Origin: Bilabrum cf. latius
Lineage: Eukaryota
Assembly: GCA_965178125.1 (NCBI GenBank)
Contig: OZ237750.1
Coordinates: 868,001 to 932,000 of the forward strand
Direction: 5' to 3'
Length of the DNA stretch: 64,000 bases
Shown one piece after another: positions 23,188-48,484 of the stretch; within the stretch, counting starts at the first letter, position 1, and each line of letters starts with the position of its first letter. The notes under the pieces were generated by a model. That model was not told the origin of the DNA and searched no databases. It saw only the letters and a list, made by a program, of their open reading frames with translations. A program made the position numbers and the translations under genes.

Positions 23188-23399
23188 ACGAAGCGGGCGA
23201 ATCGAAGACGAGGCAGCTTGGATCCCGCTCGCCAACCCCGACTCGGTATCACCGCGCCTCGCCTCGGGGTCCCCCTCTCGTGCCGAACCGTGGGAACCCC
23301 CCCCCTAAAAAAGCTTTGCCAGATGTTAGTATTCAGAATTGAAGTAGTATGGTATCAAACAGATGGCACTGCAGTCCCCGCAATGAAAAGTAGAGACCC

Positions 23400-26300
23400 T
23401 TAGTGTGTCCGGTTCATGTCGCTAAACTGCTGCGCCACACCCCCGCTCGCTTCTTTGCCCCGGGGGGGTTCACCTCCGCCGCCGACCCTTGCCTGCACGA
23501 ACTGAGCGATACTGTTCTCCAGCTCCTTGGTCATGCGCAGCTCATCCGAGCCGGTGGGGGCCATCATGCCCCGCTGGCCAAGCATCGCGCGGCTGTCTCT
23601 CCTTCCACCGCTCAGCTTGGCTGCTCGCCGCTCCAGCACACTCCCTCGCCGCCGTGGCCCGCGCCGAGCGACCGCAGAGATACTGCGCGCGCGAAGCAAT
23701 TCGGACCCTGCGCCCATTGAGCCGCCCAGCACGTCACTGTCGCGCCCGTCGTCAGGAAGTCCCAGTCCAAGCTCGAGCCCAACCGCACCAGTACCGGCAC
23801 CCGAAGCCGCACGCCCCCTTCGCCTCATCCCCTTGCCCAGCGGCGGTGGCCCCAGCATCGACCGGCCCAGGACAGCCACAGAGGCGCGGCGGACGCCCTT
23901 GGCTGCTGGCGAGCCCATGCCCGGGACACTCATGGACCCAGGGCTCGACGATCCCCAGTGTCCCTGCCCAAAGAAGGCCTTTGCATCCCGCGGCCTGCTT
24001 CCTGACCTTGAGGTAGACACGGATCTAGGGCTCGCTGCCCGGGATATTTCCTCGGCCACGCCCTCCAGCCCGGTGATCTGGTCCAGGCCCTCGTCTTCTG
24101 CCTCCTCGTCGCCGTCCGCATCGCCTCCCGCTGAGTGGTCGCCAGGAGCAATGCCAGCTCCTGTGCCCTGCCTATCCTCGTCCTCGTCCTCGTCCTCGTC
24201 GTCGGTTGGGGGTAGCGAGTCGTCATCATCCTCATCCTCTTCCTCTTCGTCTTCTGTATCAGAATACTCGGGCAGGTCGTCCTCTTTCCCTTTTGCTGTG
24301 GCATCAGCGGCAGGCGAGGGCAGGGGAGGAGGTGCACGATGTGATGGTGCCTGCGGTGGCGGCGTCGAAGGCACCGGCGCTGCTTTCCTTCCAGGTGTTG
24401 GGGAGGCTTTGTCCATCGATCTTGCTTCTTCCGGCTAGCTTGGCGCCAGAGCTGCATCTGCGGTCTCATGTCCGGCAGCTTGACTCCCACTCGCTGTGGT
24501 CACGGGTGTCCTCTATCGCATGCTGGCACGGCGCTCTTGATTGATTTGGGCCACCGGGGATTGGTGGGGATGCACCGACACCCTGGCAGCAGCGCTATCA
24601 TGCACAAAGTCGCCCGAAATGCGAACGTCTTCTTTCTCTGGAAGCGGTGTATGAGCAGTCTAGGCCTCGGCCTAGGCGCCCCCACTACTTGCACCATTGG
24701 CTTCGGACTCCGTCGTGACCTTGCCAAGTTTGCTCGCATCTTTCTTCTTGCGCTTCTTCTCCGCCTTAGCCTTCTTCTTTGCGGCTGCTTTCTCTGCCTT
24801 CTGTCTCCGAAGGTGCGCGTCCACCGCCCCTTTCACGTCCCTAACGAACCCTTGGATGTGCAAGAATGGCGTGGCGCTCGTCTCTCCCTTCGAATCGTCG
24901 ATCGAGTAGCTCAGATACGAGCACATCTCCGAGAACTGCTTTCGTGCAGCCTCCATCTCACTCTTGAGCAGCTCGATCTTGCCCTCGTTCTCCCGCGAGA
25001 GTGCCAGGACCCTGTCTCGCGCCCCCGGTGCAAGCTCCTTGGCCCGCTTCACGAGCACCCGCACCGGGGCCATCTCACGCTCTACTGAATCCACCGTCTG
25101 CTGAATGTCGTCCATCTGGAGGAACGCAGACGGCGTGGACATGAGAACGTCAAAGTCCGGTCCTAGGTCTACAAGCAAGGGGCACTGCCCGTCGCCGAGG
25201 CAGAAGTCCACGCACACGTCGAGGAAGGAGAGCCTTTGGCTGTTCTTGAGAGCCTTGAGGTTCTGCAGGTCAGCGACTCGGAAGCCTTGCGAGGACTGTC
25301 CCCTCAGTGCGTTGCCAAGTGGGAGGACAACTTGCTTGAGCAGGTACTTGTAGCGACTGCTGGTGCTCACCTCTGCGCAGCAGCTCCGGAAGGTGTCCAA
25401 CAGTTGGCTGGCCTTGGCGTATCGATCGTCGAAGACTTCGTCAAGGACCAGGAAGCTCAGCCTCTGCTTCACGAGGGAGACCTCGGACACGACGTTTCGC
25501 ATGAAGCTATCTGCGGGTGCCAGCGTCTGACCTGGCTTGAGCTGGACCGCCTGGACCTTCCGCACGTTGCTCGGTTCGAAGCAGCCCTCGGCTAGGATGA
25601 TGCGCTGCGCGGTGTCTTTGCCCCCCACAGGTCCCATGTCTATCTGCAGCAAGGCTTCTCTCAAGCTATCTTCGCTATACTTCTTGAGTACGAACGATAT
25701 GGCCAGCTCTGCTTGCTTGCGGTCCTTGGCGTCCAGAACGGACACTGTCTCGATCTTTGCTCCGCCCCCACTGGCGGATGCACCAGATGCCTTGCTTCCC
25801 TTTCCTTTTCCCTTTCCTTTTGGCTTCTTACTGTCTGTGAACTTATCAATCAGCAGTTGCTGGTGCTTGGATAGGGCGCTCGTGTCAATGGAGGGCCCTG
25901 CCCCTCGCTCTGGCGAGTCCGATGTCCACATGCTGCTGCCCTAGCCGGCGTCTACCGAGATGGAGTTCCACCGAAGCACTCTGCGACCTTTCGGGAGCTT
26001 TGCTCGGACAACCTTCTTCTGGACGGATGGCTGTGGAGCCGTAAACAGAGTAGGAAGAAGCGACATACCCGCCTGGTCCCTCCATCGGATGCACGTGACC
26101 AGGCAGCCAGTTGCCATCGCAACGGCTGCCACACGACGAGCTGTTCGATGCAGCAAGAAGCGTCTGCAAAGCCCAACACTGAACAGCTTCGTTCGCTCTC
26201 GCTGCACTCTTCGGGTGTGCGCCTCCAGCAGCAGGACCGCCATGCCGTTGAAGCGCCCACGGACGCGGCCGGTCAACGCCCGCCGCCTCATTCCCACACA

Positions 26301-46072: not shown

Positions 46073-48484
46073 TTACCCGATAGTGCGCTCGTCCTCGATC
46101 TGGCTCCACGCCACGCTCTCGACGTCCCCGCCGATGCCCCCTAGCAGGCTCGACAGCCTGCCTCTCCGCTCCGGTGCGAAGCCCCCGGCCCCAACAGAGG
46201 CCCTCTCCTCCCTCTCCACCCTTTTGGCGTACTCCAGGATGCTGGCCAGTCCCTCGGGAGAGATGCCCTCCGTGCGCGTGTATATGTGCGAGCCGCCGTC
46301 ACTGGGCTGACTGCTGCGCCGGGCGTGCACGTGAAGAGGGTGCGGCCTCCTGGAGCGGGGCGTGTGCACCCCAGGAAACTCATCTGAGTACGCTCTAGGC
46401 TCTTGCCTCGGCCCACTGGCACTGATTGCGCCGCGAATGACCCCCCGGGGAGATGGAGCGTCCTCGGTGTGGTGCCTGCCAGCAGCCTGAGAGCCCTGCA
46501 GCTTGCCAGTCACTGAGATGGTCCTAGGAACGCTAGGACCGGCCATTCCTAGCAGTTGGCCTACCTGCACTGTGTTTGAGTGCCTAATCACTCCGGATGG
46601 GGCTCGCTCTGCTGCTGGGCCTGCGCCCGCTAACCTCCTTCTTCTTCCATCAGCAAGCGGGGCATGGGGTCCGCCGCGACGCATCGAGCCCGATCTGGCG
46701 CCACTCGCTGCGAGTCTATGTACTACGGAGTGTTTCATCATGACGTGGTCTCTGAGTGGCAGCGGCAGCGGCGGCACGATCGGACGCGCCTGACCTTGAA
46801 CTGGCGATGCCGCCTGCCCTTGAATTGGCGATGCCGCCGCGTGCTGGCGCAGGGTGTGTGCCAGCTCACCGCTTCGTTTGCTGGTGGTGCGGGTGAGTGA
46901 TTTCTAGACCGGCTGGAGATGGATAGAGCCAGCCGTGGCCTCTCCTTCCGCCCTCTACCCGTGCTCTTCATGCTCCTGCTGCTCCTGACCCCCCTCGCTC
47001 TGCTCGTTGCTGGAGCTGTTCCGATCGAGGTCCATGTGGTCAGCCACTATGGATCGATGCGTCGAGTGGTGCTGCTCCGGCTGCATGTCTGCGTACAACT
47101 CACCTGCCCACCGGGATTGGTCCCCGCGTCTCCCTATACCGAACCACTTGGTGCGTCCATGTCGCACCCTCGCGACCTGAACCCCCCGCACGTGCCCACC
47201 CCTGGGGTCTCGCCGGGCTGGGCTCAGCAACCCGCCGGTTGGAGAGTCGTCGTCGTGGTAGTCCATCCGTGAGATAGAATCAGCATCGCTGAGGCGTGCA
47301 CGAGATCGAACCGCTTGCCCGTCCGGACCAGAGCCCCCGCCCTTCAAGTTGCCCCCAGTTCGCGCACCATCATTGCTTCCCACTGCAGGCTAGGCGGCGA
47401 TGTGCTGCTCCAACTCCGGCTTTGGCACTGGTCCCACCTCTAGACTCATTGCGACAAATCCAGGAGCATCCATGGCAGAGCCATTCACGTCGGACTGGGA
47501 GGAGAGCATCATCAATCCCTTCAAGTTGCCCGCGCTGCCACTGGCGTTCGAGGTGGACAGGGGGGCAAGCTGCATGGACCTCTGGGAGACCTTGGCCCCC
47601 AGCGGTCCGCTGCTCGTGCAGTCCAGAGCCGCAGCAGCAGAAGTAGCCGAGCTGCCCTATGCTACTGCACAAACTCCGCCCATGGGCCCTGTAACTTTCA
47701 AGCGCTGCAGCTGTCTGCGCTTGTCAAGGTTGGGCACTGCCCCACCGGTGCATCCATTTGCTGGAGCACATTCTGGGATTCGCTGAACTGTTTCATGGCT
47801 CTTGGCCTGCAATTTTGCAGTATAATCCGGTGCTGCAGCTTGCTGCCCCCCTGGCTCTTGTTCTACGGCAGCATGCCAACCGCAAGTTGATGGAGTTGCA
47901 CGCGAGCAGTCCGCTCCGGTAGATTGCCCTGTCGGCGACACGTTGGCATTTCTATGCACGCAGGGTTGTGATAATGATCCGACTTTTGAACCTGCTGGAA
48001 CTTGGGTGCTATTGTAGAAGCATTGGGAAGTTGCAAGGGGTTGCCTGGCGGTGATGCGGAACGCACCTCAGGCTCATCAGGCATATCAAGCGACAGTAGA
48101 AGCCCCATTGGATGCAATAATTGCTCTCACTGGAGTTCACACTGTGATTTTTATCGTGGCATTGTAAAGCACTGTTATTTTGTGCCTGCAAATATGGTGA
48201 AGTGGGAGGCAGGTTGATTCTCAGAGAAAAATGCAACTCAACCAATCATTAAGACATGTAGTGGCAGCGCATCTCAGCTGCAAAACGGTATTTTCAAGGC
48301 TCACATCGGGGTAACAGTCTTCGCTTGCAATTCCTTGGCCTGCGCCGTGGGCACGTGCACCACATTCCGAGCCTCCAACGCCCAACTTGTACCCGGAGTT
48401 CGGTACGCCGCCGTCGTGCAGAATGTCAGGCATGGAAGGCTGCACTTGGCTACTTTGCGATTCATCCCCTAAACAATTTCCCAT
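46073..48484 (-). CDS. Orphan low-complexity protein B with the shared C-terminal motif; possible MGNC- lipidated N-terminus; 5' splicing unresolved
   Basis: Frame open from about 48067 to TAA 46073 except TAG at 47657, 47390, 46955 and 46904. Candidate first exon MGNCLGDES (ATG 48484) ends at a GTGAGC donor (48304). I could not close all splice phases by hand. Confidence 0.55.
46095..46294. repeat. 200-bp direct repeat, copy 1 (copy 2 at 48661-48860)
   Basis: Manual comparison shows 2 mismatches in 200 nt. Confidence 0.93.

Follow-up and report, generated by a model that had tools for sequence, protein, structure and literature searches.

In nuclear genomes UAA and UAG nearly always carry one and the same meaning, because a single release factor, eRF1, reads both codons and a transfer RNA (tRNA) with the anticodon UUA would read both as well. 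According to the excerpts of the literature on which we draw throughout, nuclear genomes in which the two have come apart are few: Iotanema, a rhizarian, Scotinosphaera, Protocruzia, some phyllopharyngean ciliates and one oligohymenophorean (PMC5304391, PMC9161772, PMC11687900). UAG stands for glutamine while UAA stays a stop in Iotanema spirale, Protocruzia tuzeti and two lineages of phyllopharyngean ciliates (PMC11687900, PMC5304391, PMC9161772); it stands for leucine in the uncultured rhizarian exLh and in some metagenome-assembled ciliate genomes, and for serine in Scotinosphaera (PMC11687900, PMC5304391). Here we analyse a stretch of 64,000 nucleotides from the assembly GCA_965178125.1 of Bilabrum cf. 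latius (contig OZ237750.1, positions 868,001 to 932,000; this whole stretch is the window in what follows). Its genes very probably use the code of NCBI table 15, in which UAG encodes glutamine as a normal sense codon and both UAA and UGA terminate, so that UAG has been reassigned and UAA is still a stop. This kind of code is already known.

Iotanema spirale, a flagellate outside the ciliates, resembles the window in combining UAG for glutamine with a UAA stop, and the mechanism predicted for it, a tRNA-Gln(CUA) together with an altered eRF1 (in which a T32G change has been reported), is the one that we propose below. It differs in that UAA is its dominant stop, whereas TGA closes 13 of the 15 genes here, and in being an anaerobic metamonad represented by a transcriptome, whereas the nearest named homologues of the genes studied here are stramenopile (PMC5304391, PMC9161772). 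Hartmannula sinica, Trochilia petrani and Protocruzia tuzeti likewise carry UAG at conserved glutamine columns, with UAA and UGA treated as stops; 93.5-100% of their aligned C-termini end in UAA, however, whereas the window has a G+C content of 63%, comes from multi-gene contigs and prefers TGA (PMC11687900). In exLh and Scotinosphaera UAG and UAA are uncoupled as they are here, but the amino acid is another, since TAG in the window coincides with glutamine in homologous proteins (44 of 45 and 4 of 4 sequences at two conserved sites) and with CAG or CAA in an orthologue (14 of 14 sites in an ARM-repeat gene) (PMC5304391, PMC11687900). Finally, the codes that read both UAA and UAG as glutamine (NCBI table 6: many ciliates, hexamitin diplomonads, ulvophytes and Amoeboaphelidium protococcarum) agree with the window on UAG and differ from it on UAA, which is absent from the frames described here (PMC5304391, PMC6299283).

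TAG at glutamine positions

Under the standard code the longest frames of the window, measured from stop to stop, comprise 1308, 1013 and 827 codons. With only TAA and TGA as stops the longest frames reach 4051, 2223, 2101 and 1814 codons, and reading TAA in place of TAG brings no gain, the longest frame remaining at 1308 codons. The frames that depend on TAG being sense resolve the window, 63% G+C across its length, into 15 densely packed eukaryotic genes with dynein, FH2, ARM, Fasciclin, Ion_trans, TBC, DnaJ, TPR and GH63 domains (Table 1). Our gene set consists of 16 long frames delimited by TAA or TGA, which make 15 genes, the dynein being split by introns.

Which amino acid TAG represents can be read from two kinds of comparison. 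First, TAG falls in columns that homologues fill with glutamine: at 3482-3484 (+), in the GH63-like gene, 44 of 45 aligned homologues have Q in the column and one has R, and at 57793-57795 (-), in the dynein, TAG takes the place of the Q of HA.VQER(R/K)KFGP in all four of the alignments listed (61 PDB sequences were matched). Second, and most tellingly, TAG is exchanged for glutamine codons between orthologues. A related species is represented by three metagenome contigs found with the ARM protein as query (L001, 7,608 bases; L002, 2,634; L003, 2,835), which have a G+C content of 57-61% and are about 81% identical to the window at the DNA level and 95-97% identical in the ARM protein. All three of the window's ARM TAGs that these loci cover are CAG or CAA in the relative, and the relative's 11 TAGs all have a glutamine codon as counterpart in the window, CAG nine times and CAA twice, so that, with both directions pooled, all 14 sites examined show the exchange. 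In the TPR protein (67% identical) two of three window TAGs and three of six in the relative stand opposite CAA or CAG, and in the formin N-terminus (37% identical) two of six and two of seven do so. Because TAG occupies conserved glutamine columns and is exchanged with CAG and CAA between orthologues, we conclude that, as far as sequence comparison can tell, it stands for glutamine.

Leucine or serine, as in table 16 or in a code of the Scotinosphaera type, was considered and rejected, there being no L or S at conserved TAG columns; the sole serine codon found opposite a TAG (AGC) lies in the 67%-identical TPR protein.

Over the 1,670 codons of the ARM gene that the two species share, the relative has 11 TAG and the window three. 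Gene order, with formin (-), TPR (+) and ARM (+), is common to both. A formin query against metagenome contigs yielded no related loci, and neither did the ARM protein against genome contigs and viral contigs.

TAA inside reading frames

From their first ATG onwards, the 16 frames comprise 18,934 codons, among them 80 TAG, no TAA, no TGA, 114 CAA and 598 CAG; a recount with adjusted starts gives 82 TAG. The preliminary description of this DNA, which had counted about 80 in-frame TAG, no TAA and CAA in use, was accurate. CAA makes up 16% of the two standard glutamine codons, and if TAA stood to TAG, gene by gene, as CAA stands to CAG, 23.5 TAA would be expected (Poisson probability of none about 6e-11). 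Even the lowest ratio of A to G in the codon table (TTA:TTG, 15:162) still gives about 7. The two off-frames of the same stretches contain 69 TAA, 243 TAG and 591 TGA, so that TGA, with which 13 of 15 genes end, occurs 591 times off frame and never in frame.

The relative provides an independent replicate at lower G+C content of third codon positions (GC3): its 2,934 aligned codons include 24 TAG, no TAA, 19 CAA and 63 CAG, with 7.2 TAA expected and a probability of none of about 7e-4. As a check on circularity we redefined the frames of the window with TGA as sole stop. The formin frame grows from 1814 to 1829 codons, those of 4051, 2223 and 2101 codons are unchanged, and the TAAs that come to lie inside such frames are found without exception 5' of the first ATG or no more than 15 codons from the TGA at the end of the frame. 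Upstream of the first ATG there are seven TAA in 292 codons (four genes); the one in gene 3 lies inside an intron that the contigs of sequencing run X5 (see below) skip, and in the TPR gene conservation with the relative starts at the first ATG. Since the TGA-only frames are hardly longer and enclose TAAs only at their ends or upstream, the TAA count is not circular. In the window and in the three short loci of the relative, TAA is kept out of frames as strictly as TGA.

Might UAA nevertheless be a glutamine codon that is simply seldom written? This is what table 6 would imply: both UAA and UAG are glutamine, TGA is the sole stop, TAA is rare because the DNA is GC-rich, and the formin and orphan gene B, which appear to end in TAA, end at downstream TGAs. 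Of the alternatives we consider this one survives best, and we still hold it to be improbable. TAA is indeed less frequent in each frame than TAG or TGA (36-53 per 21,333 codons), TGA does follow the two TAAs of the window after 14 and 3 codons, and UAA and UAG usually change together (PMC5304391). Yet beside 82 TAG, with 23.5 TAA expected, at most two are observed, and in the less GC-rich relative, with 7.2 expected, at most one. Every candidate sense TAA, moreover, sits in the last 4-32 codons of its frame: if TGA were the only stop, the TAAs of the formin, of gene B and of the relative's TPR gene would be confined by chance to the last 15 codons of a frame of 1829, the last 4 of about 540 and the last 32 of about 755, for which the product of chances is about 3e-6. 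At the 66 aligned positions of the ARM and TPR genes where both species have a glutamine-type codon, TAG takes part in 19 of the codon pairs and TAA in none. A usage of the table 6 kind, with UAA employed like UAG, was rejected on these counts, 0 TAA against 80-82 TAG and 0 of 66 pairs.

TAA and TGA at gene ends

Thirteen genes of the window end in TGA and two, the formin and gene B, in TAA. A predominance of TGA is expected at 63% G+C. Re-reading the frames bears out both TAA ends, on the minus strand, and the in-frame TGAs that the preliminary description had placed 14 and 3 codons beyond them; its statement that gene B stops a few residues past a motif shared with its paralogues A and C also holds. 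From this motif, ..W(S/N)Q(I/F)E, A and C continue for 4 and 9 residues to a TGA and B for 7 residues to its TAA. B and C cease to match in DNA shortly ahead of their stops, and because C's TGA falls midway between B's TAA and TGA, two codons from each, the paralogue family does not decide which of the two ends B.

At the formin TAA, GC3 falls from 0.79 in the 14 codons before it to 0.36 in the 14 after, the lowest value after a stop in any gene, although the drop past stops is mild across the window's genes and the distributions before and after overlap. A protein word search with the formin tail found 0 matches. The third TAA end is that of the relative's TPR orthologue (L001 and L003), which reads ..EEEHVKV and then TAA; a TGA follows in frame only after 31 codons. 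Within these 31 codons there is a direct repeat of the DNA, and their translation would be a tail rich in Cys and Phe, unlike the TPR tail of the window, which is acidic, rich in Gly and ends in TGA. The dynein also ends in TGA, and its last 52 residues can be aligned with solved dynein chains nearly as far as these extend.

A second alternative concerns the efficiency of UAA. An eRF1 altered to ignore UAG might also perform poorly on UAA, which would then be a weak or avoided stop with a nearby TGA as backup. Only two of 15 genes use TAA, both with a TGA within 14 codons, whereas behind the 13 TGA ends another in-frame stop follows at a median distance of 62 codons (individually 187, 62, 72, 1, 72, 276, 4, 11, 49, 56, 27, 115 and 73; the frame of dynein exon 1, whose TGA is intronic, was excluded). 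However, GC bias alone explains the ratio of 2 to 13, a second stop within 11 codons also follows three of the 13 TGA-ended genes, the relative's TPR TAA goes without a further stop for 31 codons, and at n=2 nothing is significant. The caution that the preliminary description had attached to the downstream TGAs is thus justified as to the fact and carries little weight as an argument, and we rate an inefficient UAA as slightly less probable still than UAA as glutamine.

A third possibility is that UAA depends on context, being sense inside genes and a stop near their 3' ends. There are precedents, with UAA in Blastocrithidia (PMC12153298) and with all stops in Condylostoma (PMC4967479), and the confinement of TAA to frame ends is what a position-dependent code also predicts. 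But such codes show many internal copies of the dual codon, and about 19,000 codons of the window and 2,934 of the relative include not one, which makes this explanation very improbable.

Contigs of the public run X5 allow a further comparison. Over 6550-26500 they show 0 differences from the window, omit four GT..AG intervals (104, 291, 90 and 94 bases) and are interrupted between genes; from our reading of the splice joints, they behave like cDNA. Because they skip introns and are free of differences, TAG and the formin TAA are present in spliced copies: contig 13 spans 23332-24204, formin TAA included, with no gap or difference. As its end at 23332 lies past both the TAA and the TGA, the transcript end does not discriminate between the two formin stops. 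A strain 92% identical to the window, found in run X9, has in-frame deletions near the formin end (1+2 bases at 23430 and 23432, 3 bases at 23462) among the differences listed. That the frames interrupted by TAG might be untranslated as such, being pseudogenes, assembly errors or transcripts whose TAG is corrected to CAG, is scarcely credible: gene A, with six TAG in 41 codons and a flat codon-position GC, may be decaying, but all fifteen neighbouring genes contain TAG with their domains intact, the spliced contigs show the genomic sequence unchanged (0 differences), and the relative's frames are open with TAG at other glutamine sites.

A number of observations weigh against a code in which UAG is glutamine and UAA a stop. 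On the side of TAG, the one in the J-domain stands opposite K in all four PDB alignments listed, and one GH63 TAG stands opposite R in yeast (PDB alignment), both at variable positions; two further GH63 TAGs are in variable columns, as are the TAG sites in a self-comparison of the ARM repeats, which is uninformative. On the side of TAA, there are only three TAA ends, none of them where a C-terminus is conserved, and neither between species nor between paralogues can the tails of the formin, the gene B protein and the TPR protein be aligned. Both TAAs of the window have a TGA 14 and 3 codons on (ranks 3 and 14 when set among the distances behind the 13 TGA ends; rank-sum P about 0.09, near to significance but short of it), and GC3 at the relative's TPR end does not drop, being 0.65 after the TAA and 0.52 before. 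L003, furthermore, is 100% identical to part of L001 over its 2,835 bases and adds no second observation, and run X5 is labelled 'RNA? (probably DNA)', so that its cDNA nature is read from the joints. With these points taken into account, the claim of the preliminary description that UAG has been reassigned while UAA remains a stop is supported by the glutamine columns, the exchange of codons between orthologues, the exclusion of TAA from frames and the three frames that TAA closes, a broader footing than the two gene ends on which it first stood.

How could UAG be captured without UAA? We propose that UAG would be read by a tRNA-Gln with the anticodon CUA, unable to pair with UAA and with tRNA-Gln(CUG) as its simplest source. 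Anticodon CUA reads UAG and not UAA, whereas a UUA anticodon would read both (PMC5304391); because UUA would read both, we predict that a tRNA with this anticodon would be absent from the organism. In eRF1, recognition of UAG would be lost and recognition of UAA and UGA kept. The window itself contains no tRNA gene (ARAGORN) and no Rfam match at the gathering score, and eRF1 is not among its 15 genes.

Neighbouring genes, affinities and significance

The genes of the window are listed in Table 1. Intergenic spacers are very short throughout. A single X5 contig of 9,775 bases spans the convergent gene 3 (+) and WD40 gene (-), whose 3' ends must therefore overlap or abut within 254 bases (10545-10798). 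The WD40 frame has an in-frame TAG at 10817-10819 (-), five codons ahead of its TGA (..VLR-TAG-TSLPF-TGA). The two frames of the dynein can be joined through a putative mini-exon of 182 bases between GT..AG introns of 152 and 96 bases (61523-61952, -), which would restore the conserved stalk sequence and would add one more in-frame TAG (61789-61791). At 26588-27121 the formin contains an in-frame tandem array of 534 bases with units of 18, 24 and 60 bases, amounting to about 180 residues of Gly-Thr and Gly-Met repeats. The DnaJ protein has a long acidic, Cys-poor insertion in its zinc-finger/C-terminal region, and only half of the CXXCXGXG model is matched. The ion channel gave only four weak matches in a protein word search. 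The six TAGs within 41 codons of gene A lie at 44127-44249 (-), just 5' of the conserved C-terminal motif, and the GC content of its three codon positions is 0.59, 0.56 and 0.59; possible readings are that gene A is a paralogue in decay or that the TAG-rich stretch is an intron.

Table 1. Genes of the window and stop codons discussed in the text (positions within the window).
Feature	Position	Strand	Remarks
GH63/MGH1-like hydrolase	2-3931	+	1309 aa
Fasciclin protein			domain match
Membrane protein, unnamed (gene 3)		+	
WD40 protein		-	
Two-domain ion channel			domain match
TBC RabGAP			domain match
Formin (FH2)	23403-28841	-	11 in-frame TAG, 0 TAA
Formin TAA	23400-23402	-	after 1813-codon frame, ..FSDMNRTH
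Next in-frame TGA past formin TAA	23355-23357	-	14 codons on; read-through tail would be GSLLFIAGTAVPSV
TPR gene, TGA stop	31203-31205	+	TAA 4 codons further at 31218-31220; relative's orthologue ends in TAA
ARM-repeat gene	31558-43710	+	4050 codons, 6 in-frame TAG, ends in TGA
TAGs of the ARM-repeat gene (among others)	31879-31881, 32944-32946, 35983-35985	+	CAG, CAA, CAG in the relative
Orphan gene A	43908-45500	-	paralogue of B, ends in TGA
Orphan gene B, TAA	46073-46075	-	one of a three-copy family with A and C; ends ..WSQIEDERTIG, then TAA
Next in-frame TGA past gene B TAA	46061-46063	-	3 codons on
Orphan gene C	48633-50222	-	paralogue of B, DNA near-identical to B until last codons; ends in TGA
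Further orphan gene			outside the A/B/C family
DnaJ	53123-55465	-	
Axonemal inner-arm-type dynein heavy chain		-	two frames joined via mini-exon

Two genes hint at affinities. For the AAA4 region of the dynein the best named matches are the oomycetes Phytophthora, Aphanomyces and Achlya, the ochrophyte Phaeothamnion and Colponema, all at 44% identity, followed by 'Eukaryota sp. TZLM1-RC' (41%) and Gonapodya (39%). Database fragments of 552, 282 and 145 residues are far closer, at 86%, 81% and 99% identity; they show that public metagenome and run assemblies contain relatives, in pieces cut by gene calling under the standard code. The best match of the GH63-like protein is a cluster with a protein of Cafeteria roenbergensis, its nearest named homologue, which comes close to its unusual length (1314 aa, beside 1309 aa in the window) and over 306 residues is 54% identical to it. 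In a FastTree phylogeny the two are sisters with an SH-like support of 99, but the join carries a warning of long branches, and most of the other 44 sequences in the tree are bacterial. The protein has 6,344 matches at E <= 1e-10, those with an organism name nearly all bacterial, and the gene could be an old bacterial one common to both flagellates. Among the named matches of the dynein and the GH63-like protein there is no ciliate affinity. Cafeteria roenbergensis, a bicosoecid stramenopile, resembles the present case in being a heterotrophic flagellate with a compact, GC-rich genome (about 70% G+C); it differs in that the excerpted account of this genome mentions a non-standard code for the mitochondrion only (PMC6972860).

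To judge from these homologies, a stramenopile affinity, perhaps bicosoecid-like, is plausible, as a lead and not as a placement. The lineage comprises at least two species, that of the window genome and the 81%-identical one of L001-L003, along with the 92%-identical strain of run X9. It is probably new as a lineage with this code: in the literature searched, of which coverage was partial, we found no report of UAG as glutamine in a stramenopile or bicosoecid. Whether it is also the first stramenopile lineage (bicosoecid-like heterotrophic flagellates) with a changed nuclear code, and hence an independent origin of UAG as glutamine beside UAA and UGA as stops, is a tentative suggestion, about which our doubts slightly outweigh our confidence.

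A further, unrelated and GC-rich case is an independent replicate on which the changes needed in eRF1 and tRNA can be compared, and it shows that UAG and UAA can be split in a genome that stops mainly at TGA and not at UAA. There is also a practical side: the standard code and table 6 will both give wrong annotations of this genome and of related ones, of which the dynein fragments mentioned above are already an example. Should a new stramenopile origin prove true, a compact GC-rich genome with both genomic and cDNA-like data would be a handy system in which to study how eRF1 and a CUA tRNA separate UAG from UAA.

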